From a virus (lineage: Duplodnaviria > Caudoviricetes), in IMG/VR virus record IMGVR_UViG_3300032239_000632, positions 1-59,258 of that record: a DNA stretch of 59,258 nt; one strand, 5' to 3'. Positions within the stretch are counted from its first letter, which is position 1, and every line of letters starts with the position of its first letter. Made by a program: the position numbers and the translations under genes. Under the pieces are notes generated by a model. The model was given only the letters and a program-made list of their open reading frames with translations. It was not told the DNA's origin and made no database searches. This document shows, piece by piece, positions 1,797-54,561 of this stretch.

Positions 1797-4700
1797 TTAT
1801 TCTGCGGGTAATGCAATTATACGTAAATTTTTAACTCTAGGAACAATTGTAGGATCACCCGATCTCAATACAATCTTAATTGATAAAGTTACAAATGTAT
1901 CGTATGTTACACCATTTGTTGAAGTGTATGTAATAAAATTATCAATTGCAGATGGACGATATTCGTAATCTGTAAAAGTATATGGTGTTAATGCTGCGGC
2001 TACTGTAGGATTAATATTAACTAATTTTTGATATCTTCTATCTTTAAATGCTGTGCCATCAGAACCAGACAATATCTTACAGAATACATCTACTTCAGTA
2101 CCTAGAGGTTTATTTGCAGTTAAGAATACTCGTAAATCACCCGCATCAAAACCATCTGCTAATTGAATTTGTCTTGTAATATATCTTGCGAGACATGGAC
2201 CACCACTTGAATCGTATTCAGTATTCAATACAACACTTCCACCAGAACCAGATGCGGCAACAGCAGGATAGTTTGTATTTGCACCAATAGTTATAGTATA
2301 GTCATCAATGTAACCAGAACCAGGAGAAGAAACATACACACTAAGAATATTTCCACTAGAATCACATGAAAGATTACCAGTGAAACCTATACCAGTATTA
2401 CTGCTAATAACGATAACATTAGAATTTCCATAACCAGTTCCCGAAGCAACAATTGTAAAATCTTCTGAATTTACTTCTGCATCATCAACATAATTTTCCC
2501 AAATATTTAAAAATGCTTTTTCTACTGATATAATAGGTGTGACTGATTCATCTGTTGTTGACATATCTACTTTAACAGTAAAGTCACCTTTATAACCTAA
2601 AGTCTTTCTTCTATAACCAACTGCATATAAATCATCATTTTCAAATGATATTGTTGTTGCTGGTACAATTGCACGATAATCTGTTTCCATTAAACCGGCA
2701 ATTGTATTTGCTTTTAATGAATACCCAAGAGAAGTTCCAGTTGGAACAATTGATGTTTCCAATAATCTAACTTTATCTACATTGTAAATTACATCCTGTT
2801 CATCACTTTGTAATACTAATGATGCGGGTGATGTTGAGAACGAACATCTATTTAATCTAAACATCAAATCTTCATTAATATATGGTACATATTCCATAGA
2901 ATTTTGTGAACGATATAATGTTCCAACATATGGGTTAATACCAATATACTGATTACTTGTTGATAATTATCCTTTTTCTGCTTCCCACAATATATAATCT
3001 GGTGAATCAGTTATTACAACAACTGCATATAAACCAGGTTTTAAGAATAACGGAGTATAAAATTCAAAGTTTGTTATTGTTGTTGAATCATCAACTGAAG
3101 GTGATGCATCTGAAATATTAACTTCAGATGGCACTTTAGTTACAACTGATTCTGGATACCAAAAATCAGATGAAGGTGCACCATTTACAGTTGGTCTTAT
3201 TTGAACCCATACTGGTAAAGTATCGTCTTTTGCTTTGAAAAACAAATCTACACTATTCAAGAAAATACCATATGGATATCTTGCCGGATCAACAAAGAAA
3301 GTTTGTGCTAATGGATCAACATAATAGGTACCCAATAATTGTGATCCAGCTGATCTTGATGATACTAATCTATCTGATGTAGTTGTTCCAACAATCTTAG
3401 AATCAACATCATAGTTATATACAGTATCTACTAATTCTGTTTTACTTAAACTTAATCCAGATGCAACATATAATTTATCTGCAAATGAAATTGAATCACC
3501 ATCATATGTATTATTGAATGATTCTGTTACACGGAAGTTTCTTTGACCGGATCTAAATGTTGCAGTTGGTATATAAAATGCACCACCGGCTTGACCATAT
3601 TTGTTAGTTTTATTAGTACCAATGCTATAAACAACAGAACCTTGTGTTGTTGGTGTAGCACTTATTGTTGCCGTTTTTGTAGAACCAACATAAGAACTAA
3701 TCGTAAATTGTTCACCAATACCTACTTCAGAAGTGGCTGTATGAATAATTGATACAGTATTGCCATTATAGTAATCGTTAGTTGTAGATGCATTATCATC
3801 AAATACAATGGTTGCACTTGATACAGTTCCTAATCCAGAATGATGTTCATTTATTGAAGATATTGTTAATGTTACACCACTATCTAAACCATAAACATAT
3901 TTACTTGTGAGTGAAAAACCAGATTCATTAATGAATGAAACATTTGAACTACCTTTTTCACTAACAGCAACATAACCATATTTGTATGATGTTCCACCAC
4001 TTAATAGTGATACTAAATTTGCCGTTAAATCTGCAGTTGAACTTGCAAACAACACAGGTTCGCCAGCAATCAATGTTGTATTGACATTCATTGTAACTTT
4101 ATTTGGTACAACAACATATTTGTTTACATCAACTTCATCAAAGAATGAATATACAGTTGTTGATGGGCGTAGACCATTTGTCGTAAATAATACTTGTTTT
4201 GATTTCATGTATGGTTGAATCGCTAAATCAGTTACAAATTCACCAACACTTTGTTGTGATGCAGACGTTGATATTTGTTGTTGACTTAATTCAGCACCAG
4301 CAGTTAAATAAGTGTTGTCATTGTATGCTTGATAAACACCCCATAGACCACCACCTGCTTGATGACCACCACCCATCCATTGACTGTAAATATCACCACT
4401 TTTTTCATTTCGTGTTTGATACCATTTTGAATCTGCAATTTGTGCAAAAGGACTATTTTTATCATCAGACCATTGTTTTTGATTATCAGCAATATATTTA
4501 AATGCATCATTAATAAAATTAAATGCATTTTCAATACCTTGATTGGAATTCAATACAACTTTTGCAGTTGTTTCTGAATCAACATCACCAGTGAATTCTG
4601 GAAATAAACGCATTGTTCCTTTAAATGAAGAATACAAAGCTGCAGCAATTGCTGATGATTTTGTTGCATATGGTTGTTGAGCAAGAACCGATGTTGTATA

Positions 4701-7700
4701 ATCCAACATCATAATCTTTTGTTGATTTATACCAGGCGTTATTAATTTTGTTCCGCCAGTAGATATTAAAGTATTTGCCTGTAAATTAATTGTTCTCATT
4801 AATGATGCTGGTTTTAATTCACCCCCATCAATTAAACATCTATTATCAAATTGAACTTGTGTTGTTGGTGCTTTAACATCATCTGAAGTAAAGTTATCAG
4901 TTAAGATACCATACTTTGATCTGTCTAAACCATTTGCATCTGTAATTTTTGTTGATGTTGCATCTTTTTCCAATGAATTTAGAGAAACATAATATTCTAA
5001 TTGTTTGATGCGATTTTCAAATGCACCGATATCTTGCATTGTATATCTACGATGATTTTGAAAATTGGCACGAATATCTTTTACATTTTCTGTATATGCA
5101 GGTATTGATAATGTGTAAATTAACATATCACCAGAATTTACATTTGGTGCAATAGGTTTAATTGCTGATGTGCCAGATACTACTTCAAAATTTCTAGATT
5201 GTTTAACTACCACACGATCAATTCTACCTAGATAATAATCAAAATTACTTGTTAATGATTGATTTGGTAATGGATTAACTGCACCAGATATATTTGTTGT
5301 ACCAACACCTCTTGTTGGTCTGAAGTCAAATGCTGATCTTAATGGTATTAATTTATTATCTTCTTTATTATTAAAGTAAAAAATTTCATCGTAAGTAAAA
5401 TTAGAACCTGCTTTTAGATATGAGTCTACAGTAAACAAACCATCATTTTGTGGTGATGGTGCAGATTGATGACTTAGATATTTGTAGGTAACATAAACTT
5501 TACCACGTGGTGCACTATACCCACGTTTCAATGTAATTGTTGCATGGTCATAATGTGTTTTACGTTGACCGTTATCAAAATCATAATGTGTAGTAACATC
5601 ATATGTTGAACTTGACAACATTGCAGTTGTTACATTAGCAGCAGAACTTCTTGAGTCTGTAATTCTAACAATTTGTAATACATCAGGTACTTGTAAACTA
5701 ACTGCTTTACCTGGTGTTCTTAAATCTGTTAATGTTGTAGTATCATCAAAGAATGTTGAACCAACAGTATTAAATACATAACCTACTCCACTAACTGAAG
5801 TTTTTGATGATGTATTTGCTGTATAAAGACTTGTTGTACCAGGAGAACCTGCACCATTAGTAAACTCATATGGAACTAATGAATGTAAATTTAATCCAGC
5901 TGTTGATGGTATTAATTGTTTACCACGAATTGCACCCGAAGATGCATTTTCTGCATTATTAACTTTAGAGTTAATTAATAAATCAACTTTTACACCTGCA
6001 GTATTAACATCAATTTCAAAATTTGTTGAACTGATTGCAGTTACCGTAAATAAATTATTTGCTAGTCCAAGAATAGTATTCGCAGCAATACCTGATGTTG
6101 CATTTGCAGCAGTATCATAACGAACCATACAAATAATATTATCTCTAATATTTGAATCAGAAATAACACCAGGTGAACCGCAGAATGAGAATGTATCTGT
6201 ACCTTCTGCACTAATACTAATTACACCACCAGCATCTGCAGTTTTATTACTATAAAATTTCTTCGCATAAAAATCCATATTTGTCAAAGTAGAAGCTTTT
6301 ATTGCTTGATATGGTACATCAAATATTAATGAGGATCTTTGTGGTCCTGAAATCATTGCAAAACCAGTTGTTGTATCTTTAGAATCACTATTGATATTAC
6401 CAGCAAATGTTTTTGTAGTACCACTTTTAATTACAAATGATTCTGCATTTTTAAAATCTGAATCAATAGAGAATGTATTTGATGTTGGGGTAATTGGCCA
6501 TGCAGACTGTAAGTAGATATGTGTTGCATTAGATGATTGAATTAATACTGGAGAAATTCCTGTACCACCTGCATCAGTAACTCTAAAATACATATTTGCA
6601 TATGCATTGGTACCTACAGTTGAAGAAAAACCAGCAGGCATACGAATTGATCTTGTATTTGAACCTGATGCTTGAGTTGTACCAGTGATTGATATACCAT
6701 TAGCAGCAAATGTATGAACAGTAAATGAATGTGTATTACCAATTTCTAATGTCGTTGAATCGTTATAATCCATCATATTGGCACGTATTTCACCAATCTT
6801 TGTAGAATTATATGCCGTAGTGGTTGTTGTATTAACACTTGTATGTGCAACACTGTGAACATCTAATAATGGATAATTTGTAATATCTAATGTACCATAC
6901 ACAGTATCTAATACAATAGAACTTTCATAATTTGTTGATACATCATAACCTTCAACATTAGCAACTTCTCTTGCTCGATCTAATTGGATTGTTGTTGGTG
7001 CAATAGTTTGAAATTCATATCCACTAACATAGGCTTTACCAGGATCAAGAACAATATTAAACATACCATTTGCAGAATCACCTTCTTCAATAGAAATAAC
7101 GAATGGGTCTACAGTATAGTTGCCTGACTCATCGTATGTTCTACGAGCTAACATTTTTTCAATTTCACTATAGATTGGGTAATCAATTTCTTTTGTCTTT
7201 ACACCATCTACTAAACGAATAACTTCAAAGAATGAAGATACATCTGCAGAATCTAATGATCTTTTTGATAATGCTGTGTTGATTACAAATCGTTCTGCGC
7301 CTGGCGCTTGATAATTAAATGCGCCTTGTGCAGGATCCAATAATGAAGTATCATCAACTTCATCTACAATAGTTGAATCAAATTCAACACCAATCTTATA
7401 TGATGGTTGTTTATTGATTGTCGTAGAAGAACCCAATCTATAGAATAACTCAACTACTAAAAATTGCGGTGTAACTTTTACAAATTGTCCTTTGAAGTAA
7501 TATACACCATCTTGAATACTTGCAACGTAAGAAGAACCATAAGCAGCAGTATCTTTTAATTGTGCATAGATATTTTGACCATAAATCTTTAACTCATCCG
7601 ATTCAACAAACCGATCACCACTAAGATATTTAATAACCAATACTGGATTTGTACCAACACTATCAACAGCAATAACTTTTGCTCTTGCCAATTTTGTAGA

Positions 7701-28003: not shown

Positions 28004-28225
28004 TTAAAAAGGTAATCGTGCTGATTTAGGCAATAGATTATGGTCTTGTGCATCCATTTCAATCTTTTCTTTGAGACTGTTATTTACTAATGTTGCAGCT
28101 ACTTCAACTTCAAGACCTGTTGTATTACAGTATTCAATTATAGCTTCATAATGAGTATAATTGGTATCTGAAACAATATTTTCAATTGCTTTAGCAAATT
28201 CCTTCATTTCCTCTTTAGTTGCCAT
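28004..28225 (-). CDS. gp33: Late transcription coactivator gp33
   Basis: FAKAIE, EAIIEYC...LEVE, SLKEKIE, ARLP. Confidence 0.9.
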   Translation of the reverse strand: MATKEEMKEFAKAIENIVSDTNYTHYEAIIEYCNTTGLEVEVAATLVNNSLKEKIEMDAQDHNLLPKSARLPF

Positions 28226-28510: not shown

Positions 28511-28720
28511 TTATTTTTTCATTGCATAGGTAATACAAATTGCATCTGGATTTGTTGTATATGCACACTTAACTGAAAGTGGATCTACTCCTTTTGCAAT
28601 GGCTTGTTCAATATTTCTTGACATTAAAGTCCTATCATTAATCATATACATTGTTACTGAAACTGCACCAACAATTAACATACCAATCATTGTTATTGGA
28701 AACCAATCTAATTCTTTCAT
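28511..28720 (-). CDS. Small membrane protein
   Basis: N-terminal transmembrane helix, GVDPLSVKCAY. Confidence 0.65.
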   Translation of the reverse strand: MKELDWFPITMIGMLIVGAVSVTMYMINDRTLMSRNIEQAIAKGVDPLSVKCAYTTNPDAICITYAMKK

Positions 28721-29274
28721 AATTTTAACTCCTTTGTTAGATCATTCAAATCACTCTGCTTCTTATAAAAAATGTGTCTGCCTATCTGTATAGTCTTAAG
28801 TAAGTTCCAACCTGGATTTACATAATCTGCATGATAGTATGTTGCACCTTCAGTCACATCATCTATAAATTCATAATTCATTAATACTCTTACTGCTATT
28901 TCACGTATACTATTATACAACAAAGTATCTGTGATTGTCAAGGGTTTATTTAAGTTTGCCCTCTCACACACCCAAGAAAATTGACATATATTATTTTTCT
29001 TCTGATGAACTACACTACAAATTGTCGGTGCATAGTTACCAGATGCTAAACGATTCAAAGTTACAAGTGCTACTGCTACCTTACCAACATCCGATTCATG
29101 TCCCGCTTCAAAGTAAATATTCTCTGCTAAACAATCAACTTGTTTTTTAACAGGTTCAGTTAAACTTCTATATGAAACATTGATCGGTAAGAAATAAGTA
29201 TTTGGTACATTAACTGATAATATAACTACAGAAAATGCTACACAAATACTCATCATGGTTAATGGTATTCGCAT
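28717..29274 (-). CDS. Cell wall hydrolase (SleB/Hydrolase_2)
   Basis: CLAENIYFEA, AVALVTLNR, CQFSW, GATYYHADYVNP.W, IGRHIFY; N-terminal anchor. Confidence 0.92.
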   Translation of the reverse strand: MRIPLTMMSICVAFSVVILSVNVPNTYFLPINVSYRSLTEPVKKQVDCLAENIYFEAGHESDVGKVAVALVTLNRLASGNYAPTICSVVHQKKNNICQFSWVCERANLNKPLTITDTLLYNSIREIAVRVLMNYEFIDDVTEGATYYHADYVNPGWNLLKTIQIGRHIFYKKQSDLNDLTKELKL

Positions 29275-29292
29275 TGTTTTCTCCCTATGATT

Positions 29293-29605
29293 GTGATAGG
29301 TTATTCTGTTACGAGGAAACCTATCGAAACCCTAAGTAGCCGTTAAGCTGCTAATTGATAAACGCTTTCGTTTGCATTTATTGATTTTACTTTTAACGAC
29401 TATCTGTGTCGTGTTGTCTGTTTCGTTACTCATTGCCCTGTCGAAACTATTCACCCCCATCAAAAACACACTGGTACTCTAAGCCTGTTATGACTATTGT
29501 AATCAGAAATAAGAACTGGTCTGCTTTCCCAATGTGTTTATGGTGGAGGTGGGGGGATTCGCACCCCCGTCCAGAACACCTTTTACTTCACTTCATACAA
29601 CAATT
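29293..29605 (-). ncRNA. ssrA: Circularly permuted (two-piece) tmRNA; tag peptide (A)ANESVYQLAA
   Basis: On the - strand the T-arm/acceptor GACGGGGGTGCGAATCCCCCCACCTCCACCA ends at 29541 and precedes the 5' end GGGGGTGAATAGTTTCGAC at 29458. The acceptor stem has G3.U70. Tag ORF at 29375-29343. Outer boundaries are approximate. Confidence 0.92.
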
Positions 29606-29620
29606 CTATTAAATATCCTA

Positions 29621-30070
29621 TTAGAAGGATACTTTAACACCTGCACCGATTGAATTACCATCAAATGATGATACACGACTTTGACCAATCTGATAACGAT
29701 AATCAATTGTTGCTGCTACATTCTTAACAATAGGATATGATAAACCAACGCCACCTGTTACAGCATATCCATCTTTACTAGTTTGATTATCAAGCATTGC
29801 GGCACCAGCTTTAACTGAAACTTGAACTGGACCAACTTTGGCAACATCATAAGCACTAACTAAACTATAACGATCCTGATTGTTTTTGCCTTTAGTAAAC
29901 TGGTCATAACCTAAAGTAGCAGTAACACTACCAAATTTTTGACCAACGGTAATACCTTGACTATTACGATCTGTACCACTATAATCTTTAGTTACATTAA
30001 CACCTACTTCTACGCTTTGTGCTGAACCAATAATTGCCATCAATGAAACTGCTAGAATAGACTTCTTCAT
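29621..30070 (-). CDS. Small outer-membrane beta-barrel protein (OmpA/Ail/Lom-like)
   Basis: Signal peptide MKKSILAVSLMA..AQS, amphipathic strands, C-terminal GVKVSF. Confidence 0.8.
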   Translation of the reverse strand: MKKSILAVSLMAIIGSAQSVEVGVNVTKDYSGTDRNSQGITVGQKFGSVTATLGYDQFTKGKNNQDRYSLVSAYDVAKVGPVQVSVKAGAAMLDNQTSKDGYAVTGGVGLSYPIVKNVAATIDYRYQIGQSRVSSFDGNSIGAGVKVSF

Positions 30071-30138
30071 AATAACTCCTCTTTGTTTTGTTTAACTACC
30101 TTTAATACAGTCAAAAAATGAAATGACTTTATGTATTT

Positions 30139-30167
30139 ATTATACATCATACTTCATTACATGTCAA
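30139..30167 (-). promoter_or_regulatory. Sigma70-type promoter with overlapping late-type ATAAATA (30134-30140)
   Basis: TTGACA-17 bp-TATAAT on the - strand. Confidence 0.75.
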
Positions 30168-30827
30168 GTAATACTTTTTGACATATTCCTCTAGTTTTCC
30201 CTTATAATCATCAGGATTTTTGATGAATACTTGAGCAACTCCCGTTTCACAGGCAATCATTACCACTATTTGTTCTACTTTCTTGCCTGTTATCTCTTCA
30301 AACATAATCGCATATGCGGTACATTGAAGAAAATAGTTTTCAATCCAATCTTCTTTTTTCTCTTTGGTAGATGTCTTATAATCTATAATTGATATCTTAC
30401 CATCATACTCTGCAATACAATCTACACGACCAGCAACCTTCAAATGATTACTAAACAATGGTTGTTCTATTGCATATACAGTATTAATCTTATCTGTTAT
30501 AATAGGTTTCAACTGCAAGAATAATTCTTTTATATGTGGTATTAAATTTGCCATATAAAACGAATCAACTTTACCATTCAACAAATCTTCACAAACAGTA
30601 TGCATTGCAGTACCACGTGAAGAGGCTTTTTGTGTTATCTTAGCCGCTTCTTTCTCTCCTACTCTATTACGCCATTCTTGTAATGCTTTTTTATTACCAA
30701 AATGTGATAACACAGTAGTGATAGATGCATACTTACCTTTAGGTGTTGCATAATATCTACCACTAGATAATGTTTCAGATTTTAATTCAAAATCTAATTC
30801 AGGCAACTTAACAAAATTGAAACTCAT
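30147..30827 (-). CDS. PD-(D/E)XK exonuclease (exonuclease A / Cas4-like fold)
   Basis: SITTVL, EWR.RVG, RGTAMH, AGRVDCI, IIDYKT, YFLQ..AY. Confidence 0.88.
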   Translation of the reverse strand: MSFNFVKLPELDFELKSETLSSGRYYATPKGKYASITTVLSHFGNKKALQEWRNRVGEKEAAKITQKASSRGTAMHTVCEDLLNGKVDSFYMANLIPHIKELFLQLKPIITDKINTVYAIEQPLFSNHLKVAGRVDCIAEYDGKISIIDYKTSTKEKKEDWIENYFLQCTAYAIMFEEITGKKVEQIVVMIACETGVAQVFIKNPDDYKGKLEEYVKKYYLTCNEV

Positions 30828-38646: not shown

Positions 38647-38742
38647 GCGTTTTGTAATTCATTGATTTATAAAGGTTTTTTCTATTATGTAACTTATTGA
38701 TTTTATTGATCATTTGTTTACTCATTTCAGTATCTATAATAC

Positions 38743-38750
38743 TATAAATA
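38743..38750 (+). promoter_or_regulatory. T4 late promoter TATAAATA for the + strand island
   Basis: Exact consensus about 33 nt before ATG 38783. Confidence 0.7.
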
Positions 38751-38782
38751 GGTATAAATGTCAAGCACTTTATGGGGTTAAA

Positions 38783-39061
38783 ATGGACTTTTTCAAACTT
38801 GTAGCAGAATTAGGATTTCCAATTGCCGCAGCGATGGCTGGTGGATACTTCATTTTCTTAACTTTAAAATTTATATTGGCAGGTGTCATGAGTTCCATTA
38901 AAGGGTTAACTGGAATTATTGGTGCACTAGATAATAGAGTAAAGACAATGAATCATGACGTTATACGTATTGATACAATTGTTTCAAATGCTTTAGGATT
39001 AAAACCTGATACAAACCGAATTGCACGAGCAGACGGTAAAAATGATGCTAGGAGAGATTGA
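38783..39061 (+). CDS. Small membrane protein (paralog A)
   Basis: MDFFKLVAELGFPIAAA transmembrane helix plus coiled coil LDNRVKTMNHDVIRID. Confidence 0.75.
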   Translation: MDFFKLVAELGFPIAAAMAGGYFIFLTLKFILAGVMSSIKGLTGIIGALDNRVKTMNHDVIRIDTIVSNALGLKPDTNRIARADGKNDARRD

Positions 39062-39243
39062 TGATATTTGTTGATTACATTTTTGATTTAGGACCTGATG
39101 GTTCAATATTCATGGATAAAGAATTAAAGGCAGCGATGATAGATGTTAAAGAGGGTGATATTTTTGTTGCTCAGGTAGTTAATGATCAAGTATTTTTTAG
39201 AAAAACAAAAAGGACATTGTGTGAATGTCCACCAAAAGAATAG
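39058..39243 (+). CDS. Small hypothetical protein, possibly AbrB-like
   Basis: 61-aa ORF coupled to the upstream stop. Confidence 0.55.
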   Translation: MMIFVDYIFDLGPDGSIFMDKELKAAMIDVKEGDIFVAQVVNDQVFFRKTKRTLCECPPKE

Positions 39244-39261
39244 AAATAACAGGAGAAATTT

Positions 39262-40281
39262 ATGCAACCTATAAAATTACGTTGGTTAATTGCTCATACA
39301 CCAGCATATCTTTTTGTTAGAACTGCAGAAGCGTTTGCCGCAGAACTAGAAAAAGAATTGCCTGGGCAGTTTGAGATTGAAATTTTAACCATGAGAGAAT
39401 ATATAGAAAAGTATGGAGATATTCCAGAACTCAAAATGCGGTATGGAACTGTTGATGGAATTGAAAAGTTACCTAATAGTGATTTTTTTACTCCTGTTGA
39501 ATTGAATGATGCAAAGAAGAAATGGACTGCATTTTTTAATGGTATAAAAGATACTAAGATACATTTAAGTCAAACACAAGTGAGCATTGTTGGTTGGCAT
39601 CTTTATAAAAAATTATCAACTTTAGATTTACCATTTTTGTTTAATAGTCACGATCATGTAACAGAAGTATTGGATGGAGAAATTGGTGATAATCTGCGTA
39701 AAGAATTATTTGAAAAAACAAATATTAACGGTTTAGCATTTACCTATTCTGGTGGTTATCGTATTGTTGGTTCAAATCAACCAATTGAAAATCTTGAAGA
39801 GTTAAAGGATGTAAACATTACTACAACCCCAATGACTCAAACATTATTTGGAAAATTTGCTAAAAAAGCAACCAGTAAAATGAATCAAAAACTTGATGAA
39901 ACATCTGAACAAGTCACAAAAGGTGGTGCTATTGAAACTACATATTTACGGTTTGCAGGTAAAAATGTTCTTAAAACTAATCATAGTATGTTCTTGACAA
40001 CAATATTAGTTGGTGGATCATTTTTTAATACATTAACAAAAGAACAACAAGAAGTATTTCAAAAAACTGCAAAAATTGTTGCTAAGTTGGAACGTAAATG
40101 GTCATTAGAAGATGCACAAAAATATGAAGATGAAGCTGTATCTAAAGGAATTACTATTAAAGAAATTACTGTAGAAGAAAGTCAAAAACTAAAAGATGCT
40201 TCTCCAGATCAATATACAACTGCTTATACAATTATTGAAGGCAGTAAAGAATTAGTTAACAAAATTAAAAACAAAGGTTGA
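39262..40281 (+). CDS. TRAP transporter solute-binding (DctP-like) protein
   Basis: LDLPFLFNSHDH...LDGEIG, LAFTYSGGYR, PI..LEELK; no signal peptide. Confidence 0.75.
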   Translation: MQPIKLRWLIAHTPAYLFVRTAEAFAAELEKELPGQFEIEILTMREYIEKYGDIPELKMRYGTVDGIEKLPNSDFFTPVELNDAKKKWTAFFNGIKDTKIHLSQTQVSIVGWHLYKKLSTLDLPFLFNSHDHVTEVLDGEIGDNLRKELFEKTNINGLAFTYSGGYRIVGSNQPIENLEELKDVNITTTPMTQTLFGKFAKKATSKMNQKLDETSEQVTKGGAIETTYLRFAGKNVLKTNHSMFLTTILVGGSFFNTLTKEQQEVFQKTAKIVAKLERKWSLEDAQKYEDEAVSKGITIKEITVEESQKLKDASPDQYTTAYTIIEGSKELVNKIKNKG

Positions 40282-40285
40282 TAAA

Positions 40286-41059
40286 ATGAAAAAAATAATT
40301 TATGCTTTATTATTTGTTTGCGCTAATGTATTAGCAAATCCTATTGACGATAACTGCCCACAATTCGTTTTACGTGGTGCACCAGTGAGTAAATTAACTC
40401 AGAACACTACAAAATACCTATGTAAAAAAAACTATGCTATTCATTACAGAAACGATACCAAAACTGCAGAATATGTTGTTGAACATCTTACATTACCTGC
40501 AGTAACAGGTACAGTTAAACGCCAAGATGATTTTAGACCTGATCCCGATATTCCTAAACAAAATCAATCTTTACTATCAGACTATGCTGGCAACCCATAT
40601 GATAGAGGTCATCTATCACCAGCAGGTAACAATACACAATCAGCAATTGTTATGAGTGAGAGTTTCTTTTTATCTAATATGGTACCACAAGTACCTAATC
40701 ACAATCGTGGTATTTGGAAACAATTAGAAACCTATACTCGTAATTGGGTAATTGAAGGTGGTGATCTGTATGTTGTTACAGGAACATTCTATGCGCCCGA
40801 ACATTTAACTATTGGTGCTAATAAAGTTGGTGTACCTACTCATTTATGGAAAGTAATTGTTGACCGTAAGAATGTTAAATCAATTGCATTTTTCTTTCCT
40901 AATGAAGCATTACCAGTACCAGATTTGCCAAAGTATGCAGTATCAATTGCAGATATTGAAGGTATAACACAAATTGATTTTATGCCTCAGTTACCACCTG
41001 AATTGAAGAGATTAGAAGAAAACAAACCAGACTTAACTAAGTGGAGTGGATTGCACTAA
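40286..41059 (+). CDS. Exported DNA/RNA non-specific endonuclease (NucA/EndoG family)
   Basis: Signal peptide; YDRGHLSPA, ESFFLSNMVPQ...NRGIWKQLE, VPTHLWKV. Confidence 0.93.
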   Translation: MKKIIYALLFVCANVLANPIDDNCPQFVLRGAPVSKLTQNTTKYLCKKNYAIHYRNDTKTAEYVVEHLTLPAVTGTVKRQDDFRPDPDIPKQNQSLLSDYAGNPYDRGHLSPAGNNTQSAIVMSESFFLSNMVPQVPNHNRGIWKQLETYTRNWVIEGGDLYVVTGTFYAPEHLTIGANKVGVPTHLWKVIVDRKNVKSIAFFFPNEALPVPDLPKYAVSIADIEGITQIDFMPQLPPELKRLEENKPDLTKWSGLH

Positions 41060-41379
41060 TGGATGCTGTAGAACTCGTCAACAAATATGGTTTTCCTATT
41101 GTCGCTGCGGGTGGCATGGGATACATGATTTACTTTGTATGGGAATGGGCTACTAAAGAAGTTAAACCTGTTCTCAGTGAAGCAAATGCAACTTTAATCG
41201 GTTTAATTGATAGAATCAGAATGTTAGATAATGATTTAATTAGATTGAATCAAAAGGTTGATGTTGTTCTACATCTCCGTGGTAAAACAATTGAACACGA
41301 ACGGGTATTGGCAGAACAAAAAATTAACGCATTTGTGGATGAAGAGGATAAGAAAACTGCATCAGCCGGTGAAGGTTAG
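41059..41379 (+). CDS. Small membrane protein (paralog B)
   Basis: MDAVELVNKYGFPIVAAGG transmembrane helix plus LIDRIRMLDNDLIRL. Confidence 0.75.
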   Translation: MDAVELVNKYGFPIVAAGGMGYMIYFVWEWATKEVKPVLSEANATLIGLIDRIRMLDNDLIRLNQKVDVVLHLRGKTIEHERVLAEQKINAFVDEEDKKTASAGEG

Positions 41380-49054: not shown

Positions 49055-49129
49055 TGGCCTGCCTACCCGGAGTCGAACCAGGAAATACGCCTTAGAAGGG
49101 CGTTGTTATATCCATTTAACTATAAGCAG
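49055..49129 (-). tRNA. tRNA-Arg(UCU)
   Basis: Cloverleaf, anticodon loop CTTCTAA, GTTCGACTC, encoded CCA. Confidence 0.92.
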
Positions 49130-49133
49130 AAAA

Positions 49134-49209
49134 TGGTCGGTGATGCAAGGTTTGAACTTGCGACCTCATGCTCCCAAAGCACGTATTCTACCAACTGAAC
49201 TAATCACCG
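49134..49209 (-). tRNA. tRNA-Pro(UGG)
   Basis: CGGTGAT acceptor, loop TTTGGGA, CCA. Confidence 0.93.
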
Positions 49210-49217
49210 ATAAATTT

Positions 49218-49291
49218 TGGTGCTCCGTGACAGAATTGAACTGCCAATTGATGATTACAAATCAACCGTTATACCATTTAACTAACAGAGC
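49218..49291 (-). tRNA. tRNA-Thr(UGU)
   Basis: GCTCTGT acceptor, loop TTTGTAA, CCA. Confidence 0.92.
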
Positions 49292-49297
49292 AAAATT

Positions 49298-49385
49298 TGG
49301 CGGAAGCTGTGAGATTCGAACTCACGGACCCTTTCAGATCGGCAGTTTTCAAGACTGCTGGTTTAAACCTCTCACCCAAACTTCC
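49298..49385 (-). tRNA. tRNA-Ser(UGA)
   Basis: Long variable arm, loop CTTGAAA, GTTCGAATC, GCCA. Confidence 0.93.
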
Positions 49386-53930: not shown

Positions 53931-53959
53931 ATTATACAACAACTAAAAACGAATGTCAA
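53931..53959 (-). promoter_or_regulatory. Sigma70-type early promoter
   Basis: TTGACA-17 bp-TATAAT. Confidence 0.75.
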
Positions 53960-54561
53960 CTATACCGAGTAATATTGCCATTCTCATGAACAAAAAATGC
54001 TTCAAAATTAATATTGCTAAATTCTTTTTTCAATCCTAAAAATGCATCTAGATTACCTGCATGGTCATCAAACATCCTAGCAATACTATACTTACCTTTT
54101 TTCAATTTGTTCCGTGTAATCTCAGCTTTTGCCTCAGGTCCGGGCATTGATAGATTACCCGCACGATGCACATGCACCCGCTTGATATCAAAACCATACT
54201 TGTCAAAGGTCTTTAAGAATAAATTTTTATCATCTAAATCAACCCGAGCAGTAATTATGATAATCTCTTTTTGAGGTGTTTTCTTAAACTTATCGAGCAT
54301 CCGCTTTGCAGTCTTAAATACTGTATCAACTGGTTTAGCGGTTTTATTAAATATTGCAGATGACCTAAATTCGGAAAAATCAAATTCTTCACCCTTCTTT
54401 TTATCATATACATTATATTCAGCAGGTGTAAGTGAACCAATTTTTTTACCATCTTTCATTACAAGCACTGAACTCTTGGTACGGAACAAAGTATCATCAA
54501 TATCAAATATTGATAAACTTGATTCTACATCTTCTTTAATAAATTCTTTGAAAGATATCAT
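53956..54561 (-). CDS. HAD-superfamily phosphatase-like protein
   Basis: IFDIDDTLF, IITAR, K, MFDD...NL. Confidence 0.8.
   Translation of the reverse strand: MISFKEFIKEDVESSLSIFDIDDTLFRTKSSVLVMKDGKKIGSLTPAEYNVYDKKKGEEFDFSEFRSSAIFNKTAKPVDTVFKTAKRMLDKFKKTPQKEIIIITARVDLDDKNLFLKTFDKYGFDIKRVHVHRAGNLSMPGPEAKAEITRNKLKKGKYSIARMFDDHAGNLDAFLGLKKEFSNINFEAFFVHENGNITRYS

Follow-up and report, generated by a model that had tools for sequence, protein, structure and literature searches.

A predicted beta-type, circularly permuted tmRNA gene in a T4-like phage from freshwater metagenomes

The locus and the anatomy of the gene

The DNA analyzed here, referred to as the window, is the complete IMG/VR virus record IMGVR_UViG_3300032239_000632, a linear stretch of 59,258 bases for which CheckV estimates 35% of a genome. 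On its minus strand, within 29293-29605, lies a predicted gene for a two-piece transfer-messenger RNA (tmRNA; ssrA) in circularly permuted order. As both ARAGORN and direct reading indicate, the 3′ tRNA domain with its CCA stands upstream of the 5′ domain, and a spacer of 82 nucleotides (nt) separates the two. An earlier note on this DNA had described such a gene from the letters. The sequence elements that it listed were each recovered at their minus-strand coordinates, and its conclusion that a phage carries a two-piece tmRNA in circularly permuted form is borne out by ARAGORN, Rfam, covariation, and synteny with annotated phage ssrA genes.

Sequence, Rfam, ARAGORN, and an alignment of relatives were used to outline both predicted pieces, and the motifs spelled out below were read directly. 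The acceptor piece (29541..29602) comprises the 5′ strands of P2 (29602-29598 and 29578-29572), a T arm of 5 base pairs (bp) with a 7-nt loop (GGGGG/UGCGAAU/CCCCC, 29568-29552), the 3′ acceptor strand CACCTCC (29551-29545), and ACCA, i.e., the discriminator A followed by an encoded CCA (29544-29541). The intervening segment (29459..29540, 82 nt) is closed by a stem of 11 bp, one of them G.U, formed by AAACACATTGG (29539-29529) and CCAGTGTGTTT (29474-29464), and its excision is expected. The coding piece (29295..29458) extends from the 5′ acceptor strand GGGGGTG (29458-29452), which is followed by a UUCGAC loop, through the 3′ strands of P2 (29440-29434 and 29416-29412), a 4-bp hairpin (29411-29397), and the tag frame to a 3′ hairpin. 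In the latter, GATAGGTT (29325-29318) pairs with AACCTATC (29302-29295) around the loop UCCUCGUAACAGAAU, which is conserved among the aligned phage sequences.

Between the pieces, TGTTCTG (29578-29572) pairs with CAGGGCA (29440-29434) in P2, while GGGGGTG and CACCTCC form an acceptor stem containing the G3.U70 alanine determinant that the earlier note had recognized. The tag frame, which ARAGORN also reports, runs from the resume codon GCA to TAA (29375-29343) and encodes ANESVYQLAA; the predicted LAA ending is thus read directly as well as by program. The resume context is ATAAAT-GCA (AAUAAAU-GCA in the RNA), and AAUAAAUGCAAACGAAAG fits the ARAGORN resume consensus.

In the direction of transcription, the gene order established with PHROGs and Pfam begins with a PD-(D/E)XK nuclease (30147-30827). 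It is followed by an open reading frame (ORF) of 149 amino acids (29621-30070), which ends in ...GVKVSF, lacks a PHROG, and resembles outer-membrane proteins (OMP) through matches to the Pfam families BBP2_2, OMP_b-brl, and OmpA_membrane, all of them sub-threshold. From the end of this OMP-like ORF to the first tmRNA helix there are 19 nt, and the ORF is conserved in L009, one of the two nearest relatives of the window. On the other side, the tmRNA 3′ end runs directly into the ribosome-binding site and ATG of a cell-wall hydrolase gene (28717-29274; 185 amino acids; PF07486, 74 bits), whose product has an apparently hydrophobic N terminus; the ribosome-binding site lies ~10 nt past the 3′ hairpin. 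Two small ORFs, one of 69 amino acids and one DsbA-like, come between the hydrolase and gp33 (28004-28225), after which gp59 and gp32 are found.

Detection and subtype

According to ARAGORN, a permuted tmRNA with the tag ANESVYQLAA spans 29252-29633(-). Among the models of Rfam 15, tmRNA_permuted (RF04321), a merged model of the tRNA-like domain (PMC11915505), matches with 131.4 bits against a cut-off of 47 (E 1.7e-25 for the whole window), covering model positions 1-213/213 in register with the tag frame. The beta_tmRNA model (RF01850) gives 104.6 bits against a cut-off of 84 (E 8.7e-31, whole window). The check by Rfam and ARAGORN that the earlier note had proposed came out in favor of the gene, with one part falling away: of its three lineage models, beta_tmRNA and alpha_tmRNA (RF01849; 72.8 bits, cut-off 50) pass, whereas cyano_tmRNA (RF01851) reaches 43.9 bits on the tmRNA region and stays below its cut-off of 70. 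Although bit scores of different Rfam models are comparable only roughly, the predicted tmRNA is of the beta subtype, RF01850 scoring above the alpha and cyano models. The match of the detectors to the putative tmRNA far exceeds chance. The fold of the whole gene has z = -4.45 relative to shuffles, and in its minimum-energy form the acceptor and spacer stems stack on each other.

Conservation of structure and tag

The structure was assessed on an alignment of 22 sequences, i.e., 18 from phages (the window, 16 relatives of the beta type, and L071, typed afterwards as alpha by Rfam) and four bacterial beta-type two-piece tmRNAs. Taking all helices together, pairing holds in 85.8% of 985 cells; shuffles give 70.8%, and none of them (0/500) reaches the observed value. 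When the partners are slid by 1-3 columns, 45-50% are paired, a comparison in which the counted helices are favored because they derive from the window's own row; the double-sided changes, seen in 29 of 46 pairs, are independent of this choice. The acceptor stem (7 pairs) and the T arm (5 pairs) are both 100% paired, with double changes in 3 pairs each, and G3.U70 is retained in 22/22 sequences. The inner P2 (6 pairs) is 93.9% paired with 3 doubly changed pairs, and the outer P2 (5 pairs) 87.6% with 2. Double changes are found in 10 of the 11 pairs of the spacer-closing stem (92.9% paired) and in all 8 pairs of the 3′ hairpin (72.2% paired).

The mature tmRNA parts of L009 are 93% identical to those of the window. 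The acceptor stem is GGGCCGG/CCGGTCC in L009 versus GGGGGTG/CACCTCC in the window, i.e., three compensatory changes with G3.U70 retained, and the tag, read by eye, is the same peptide with one synonymous GCT-to-GCC change. The tag peptide of L008, the other nearest relative, is also that of the window. Across 48 permuted tmRNAs called by ARAGORN (the window, 42 viral loci, the Pelagibacter phage Mosig, and four bacteria), the acceptor stems comprise five different sequences, every one fully paired, and all tags end in L/M/V/I followed by AA; disrupted acceptor stems or tag frames occur in 0/48. As read from these comparisons, the compensatory changes and the tag kept across diverged phages show purifying selection on the predicted RNA. 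Since the tag frame is intact and kept, with the same peptide in L008 and L009, selection also acts on the coding part.

Synteny and spread among phages

A search with the nuclease protein as bait showed relatives of it encoded on 598 viral stretches, from which the 80 best loci were retained. Of these 80, 49 have a permuted tmRNA downstream of the nuclease gene. ARAGORN is positive in 42/80 (33/60 plus 9/20), and profiles of the two pieces, built from the ARAGORN hits, detect both pieces in 47/80 and the coding piece alone in 2 further loci. Rfam was run on 52/80 loci, namely the 49 positives and L010, L014, and L024, which are top-ranked and ARAGORN-blank; it confirms a tmRNA in 48 of the 52, the one missed positive being L009, which was read by eye. 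The Rfam run did not include the 28 loci in which neither ARAGORN nor the piece profiles had a hit, some of which are cut short downstream.

By best clan family, 20 loci carry a beta-type and 27 an alpha-type tmRNA, and L021 passes RF04321 alone. When the tmRNA labels (beta, alpha, or none) are mapped onto an 81-row maximum-likelihood tree of the nuclease protein, they take 13 changes, compared with an average of 37.8 in shuffles, 0/200 of which are as low. The window falls into a well-supported clade of 7 rows, 6 labelled beta and 1 none; in this tree the window, L009, and L021 were labelled beta on similarity, L009 and L021 being without an RF01850 hit. Since kin share labels, the tree shows only that tmRNA type follows the phage backbone, not why. 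Among bacteria, RF04321 passes its cut-off in 7 of 151 genomes of an order-level search around a Deefgea genome, 3 of these hits being strong. One locus, L214, belongs to a genome flagged as unpublished (G032) and was left out of the results. A search for a host or donor by a 24-nt T-arm pattern in bacterial genomes was discarded as too generic, its hits coming mostly from Chloroflexota, Saccharibacteria, and others.

Comparison with known systems

Phage-borne two-piece tmRNAs have been described before. Buchholz et al. 2022 (PMC9004378) reported a two-piece ssrA in Melnitz, and the available text of their paper lists 402 of 18,146 phage genomes with 133 unique tmRNA structures, 53 of them two-piece by ARAGORN; 50 of these 53 come from marine or aquatic phages. 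It also gives permuted tmRNAs in 17/47 Melnitz-like contigs and a tree in which phage genes group with alpha, gamma/beta, and cyanobacterial lineages. In the tmRNA database paper of 2025, 79 unique bacteriophage sequences are counted (PMC11915505). Because PMC9004378 already reports two-piece tmRNAs from this same phage group, the nearest cultured relatives among them, the tmRNA of the window is not new in kind; the predicted gene adds a beta-type member to those known from aquatic T4-like phages.

The ssrA of Melnitz EXVC044M (MZ577097.1, 45984-46436) is, like that of the window, two-piece and permuted in a T4-like aquatic myophage. The gene order in Melnitz (nuclease, two ORFs, SsrA, gp33, gp59, and later the ssDNA-binding protein) matches that of the window, except that in the window the hydrolase gene and two small ORFs separate the tmRNA from gp33. 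Melnitz is marine, while the DNA of the window occurs in lake and freshwater metagenomes. Its ssrA is alpha-type (RF01849, 106.7 bits) with the 14-residue tag ANDNYVPVDYALAA, whereas the gene of the window is of the beta type and its tag has 10 residues. Directly 3′ of the Melnitz tmRNA stands a glutamine riboswitch (RF01739, 52.8 bits); the window is without one, there being no RF01739 match at E <= 10 within 28600-30200. In Mosig EXVC030M, SsrA (MT647606.1, 111467-111805) occupies the same slot, with the nuclease and one ORF before it and gp33 after it. It is permuted and 87% identical to the window over 54 nt of the T-arm/acceptor region; unlike in the window, it is alpha-type (67.6 bits), with the ARAGORN tag GEDNFALAA and a 44-nt spacer.

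Other RNA elements adjoin the tmRNA in some relatives. The glutamine riboswitch that follows the Melnitz tmRNA lies at L227:1886-1934. A manA RNA follows the tmRNA in L036 (5478-5686) and another occurs in Mosig (L002:7383-7590), and SAM-V stands just upstream of the tmRNA at L063:4122-4187 and L065:4088-4153; none of these elements is present in the window.

The bacterial RF01850 genes (G006, G136, G031, G071) have tRNA-like domains 78-86% identical to that of the window and share with it 10-residue tags (ANDERFALAA and similar), P2a and P2c, a spacer-closing stem, and a 3′ hairpin with a related loop. Over the mature parts as a whole, they are merely 53-56% identical to the window. They differ further in having a second 3′ hairpin or terminator, which is absent from the window, in the T loop (UUCRAYU versus UGCGAAU), and in that 3/4 do not encode the last A of CCA, which the window encodes.

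The two-piece tmRNA of Caulobacter, of the alpha lineage, was reportedly shown to function by the experiments of Keiler, Shapiro and Williams in 2000. The Caulobacter gene is permuted and its precursor is cut by tRNA-processing enzymes into two base-paired RNAs (PMC11915505), as is proposed here. The mycobacteriophage Bxz1 group and Bacillus phage G also carry ssrA, but in one piece, in standard order, and in unrelated phages, and the tRNA-like-domain (TLD)-only RNA of mycobacteriophage DS6A is phage-borne without a tag frame, likewise in an unrelated phage group (PMC4131195). A phage smpB goes unmentioned for the Bxz1 group, phage G, and DS6A in the available text of that paper.

Carrier phage and transcription context

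PHROGs matches, obtained for 51 ORFs of the window, give the profile of a T4-like myovirus, with baseplate wedge and hub, tail tube, the gp2 end protector, gp4 head closure, gp32, gp59, gp33, and DsbA. The G+C content of the window is ~29-36%. By gp6, the closest cultured phages are Methylophilales phage Melnitz (42% identity, 70% of the query covered), Pelagibacter phage Mosig (39.7%), and Pelagibacter phage HTVC008M (37.6%). A 501-base stretch around the tmRNA was traced in sequencing runs: 20 runs from 12 studies contain it, and 10 run rows, from lake water, freshwater, or unlabelled metagenomes, contain at least half of its sampled words; two rows possibly represent the source sample. It occurs mainly in lake and freshwater DNA metagenomes, and RNA libraries contain only small shares of its words. 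The habitats of these runs suggest that the carrier is a freshwater phage.

A sigma-70-type promoter, TTGACA-17-TATAAT (12/12), is located at 30139..30167 upstream of the OMP-like ORF. The only strong promoters on the minus strand are this one (30167-30139) and another at 28941-28912, and the former is the likeliest source of the tmRNA precursor transcript. The OMP-like ORF and the tmRNA are probably co-transcribed. No terminator-like site was found after the tmRNA on the minus strand.

Elsewhere in the window, four tRNA genes (Ser-tga, Thr-tgt, Pro-tgg, Arg-tct) lie at 49055-49385(-), spaced 4-8 nt apart, and a 201-residue ORF at 53956-54561(-) weakly matches polynucleotide kinase (phrog_415, E 6.3e-9). 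The tRNAs, the kinase-like ORF, and the tmRNA jointly hint at a toolkit for translation maintenance or RNA repair. The idea in the earlier note that the phage RNA might act against host defences cleaving tRNA or mRNA is speculative, with the four tRNA genes and the kinase-like ORF as the only features of the window that have any bearing on it. The block 38714-41379(+) is the sole plus-strand block in a minus-strand genome, and the GC skew flips there; phrog_18771 paralogues (38714-39061 and 41041-41379) bracket a 339-residue ORF and a nuclease (phrog_14168). This block may be an inserted module.

The intervening segment and its cargo

The spacers of phage beta-type genes measure 32-175 nt, that of L009 531 nt, and those of the four bacterial genes 25-43 nt. 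Comparison of 29000-29900 of the window with L008 and L009 gives 22-25/25 matching positions per bin (92-100%), except within 29450-29549, where the lowest bins fall to 6/25 (L008) and 10/25 (L009). The spacer interior of both relatives is unrelated to that of the window, and the closing stem is kept in both through compensatory changes. By itself, the spacer of the window folds unremarkably (z = -1.74). A second copy of its interior was not found in the window at <=3 mismatches, nor was an exact 25-mer match found elsewhere in IMG/VR. An ORF within it was considered and rejected by eye: starts of the ATG, GTG, or TTG type are absent, and the sole open frame begins at ATT.

The spacers of relatives do contain genes. 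In L009, the counterpart of 29459-29540 (4788-5319, 531 nt) holds an HNH homing-endonuclease ORF (4859-5317; 152 amino acids; phrog_655, E 2.6e-15; Pfam HNH match sub-threshold), the TGA stop of which lies 1 nt ahead of the tmRNA 5′ G; the three compensatory changes of the acceptor stem lie on either side of this insert. The length of this spacer explains why ARAGORN and Rfam missed the L009 tmRNA. A 50-residue ORF (MKYKIVVK...) occurs in the spacers of L011 (4284-4436), L012 (950-1102), and L021 (4249-4401); it is common to tmRNAs with differing tags, and its L011 and L021 versions differ by several substitutions and silent changes. Further examples include a 52-residue ORF (L084:4265-4423) and a 68-residue ORF with a sub-threshold DUF2061 match (L082:3559-3765 and L083:4281-4487). 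The spacer of L015 contains, at 4360-4433, what ARAGORN calls a tRNA-Arg(ccg), with the acceptor stem GGGTATA/TATATCC, G3.U70, discriminator A, and CCA. The T loop of this element resembles that of the tmRNA, its anticodon stem is weak, it stays below the Rfam tRNA cut-off, and the close relative L016 is without it.

Because the window and its two nearest relatives are near-identical except for the replaced spacer interior, it is conceivable, albeit doubtful, that the tmRNA gene of this phage lineage serves as a slot for mobile cargo, of which the window would carry the empty allele. The HNH endonuclease may home into the tmRNA gene, and the stem changes of L009 may shield its own allele while the RNA stays functional. 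An intron may be unneeded, in that tRNA-processing enzymes may excise any insert from a hairpin-closed spacer. If so, the allele of the window would be a natural cleavage target. In the library searched, no paper was found that joins a permuted tmRNA, its intervening segment, and a homing endonuclease, apart from PMC11915505, the available text of which reports endonuclease genes in tmRNA solely in group I introns and terms a tRNA-Ala within one intervening sequence unique.

Proposed function and competing explanations

We consider it probable, at about 0.8, that a freshwater T4-like myophage here carries a working ssrA gene, circularly permuted and beta-type, which acts in trans-translation with host SmpB; the basis of this estimate is the anatomy of the gene and the selection on its structure, not expression. 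The tmRNA would be part of a longer early transcript, probably initiated at the promoter 30167-30139 and passing through the upstream ORF. Host tRNA-processing enzymes would cut the precursor, with RNase P acting at G29458 and 3′ trimming proceeding to the CCA at 29541, and the 82-nt hairpin spacer would be released by this processing. Pairing in P2 and in the 7-bp acceptor stem would keep the acceptor and coding pieces together. Host alanyl-tRNA synthetase (AlaRS) would charge the RNA via G3.U70 and A73, and stalled ribosomes would receive it through host SmpB and EF-Tu. Translation would then resume at GCA 29375, appending (A)ANESVYQLAA, and the LAA end would target the product to ClpXP-type proteolysis, as ClpX reads the LAA end of the tag. 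The likely benefit would be that ribosomes are freed and amino acids recycled while host and phage mRNAs decay during infection.

Several observations weigh against this proposal. The middle P2 helix of RF04321 (4 bp) is not formed in the window, 3/4 of its pairs being non-canonical. The PK1 site offers only the 4-bp hairpin at 29411-29397, which is 35.7% paired as aligned (22 sequences) with double changes in 0 of its 4 pairs, and inspection by eye of the stretch from P2 to the resume codon showed no second PK1 stem. The T loop UGCGAAU (29557-29563) has a G at the position of tRNA U55; its second position is U in tRNAs and in all four bacterial beta-type genes. The UGCGAAU loop is common to the L013-L022 phage group, and the UGCAAAU of L008 is one base off. 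The second 3′ hairpin or terminator of the beta_tmRNA model (9 bp) is deleted in the RF01850 alignment of the window. With respect to expression, the only promoter nearer to the tmRNA is a single weak site (29696-29668, 9/12), with no strong one directly upstream. The contigs of four runs (three RNA, one recorded as RNA but probably DNA) hold only fragments of relatives, with 88-99% likeness and without joints or informative ends, and one 522-nt contig spans the whole gene of a relative. Finally, a search for SmpB (PF01668) found none in the window, as the earlier note had stated, nor in five related records, which include Mosig and a 150,107-base record with terminal repeats that is rated 100% complete; the same search was above cut-off in 10/14 control genomes. 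Host factors must therefore serve.

A different role for the tag is unlikely, yet has some features in its favor. The RNA could be a re-tagging device with an altered degron that shifts the proteases or adaptors used, or that selectively tags host proteins for amino-acid recycling, the latter being offered as an alternative in the Melnitz paper (PMC9004378). In the tag of the window, LAA is preceded by Q and the third residue is E, and ARAGORN reports for it 'Tag not identified'. A residue other than A or S before LAA occurs among the 48 tags only in the window, L008, and L066 (R); the tag of L009, read by eye, equals that of the window. Nevertheless, the LAA end that ClpX reads is kept, and trans-translation acts on stalled ribosomes, without a known means to select host proteins.

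It is more improbable still that the phage RNA competes with or inhibits host tmRNA, titrating SmpB or occupying stalled ribosomes rather than rescuing them. Such an inhibitor has been proposed in the TLD-only tmRNA of DS6A, and a similar molecule strongly inhibits tmRNA (PMC4131195); moreover, as phage SmpB was not found in the window and the five related records, the host SmpB pool would be shared. Unlike in DS6A, however, the tag frame is intact and conserved, the resume context is of the consensus type, and 48/48 tags end in (L/M/V/I)AA.

It is very improbable that the phage merely carries along a non-functional gene, captured from a host or left over from an integration site, that is drifting: ssrA attachment-site fragments are frequent in temperate phages (PMC9004378), and 31/80 related loci, some of them cut short downstream, show no tmRNA, so that it is dispensable for the lineage, but the compensatory changes and the conserved tag across diverged phages speak for purifying selection, and an integrase family was matched by 0/51 scanned proteins of the window. 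An attachment-site remnant in particular was rejected, the gene being complete rather than a 3′ fragment and the genome T4-like.

Significance

Taken alone, the tmRNA of the window matters little, such phage genes being already known. It provides a clean freshwater beta-type example at a locus where the marine phages Melnitz and Mosig have the alpha type, and this contrast at one locus is relevant to a published argument in which host transitions are traced by the type of tmRNA. Standard finders overlook relatives with gene-carrying spacers, as the L009 gene missed by both ARAGORN and Rfam illustrates. Set beside those of its near-identical relatives, the gene is hypervariable in a single place, the spacer, which is also where cargo is accepted. 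Host class may be reflected in whether this fixed locus carries the alpha or the beta type. In uncultured freshwater myophages, the tmRNA would be useful to annotate and could serve as a marker for predicting hosts.

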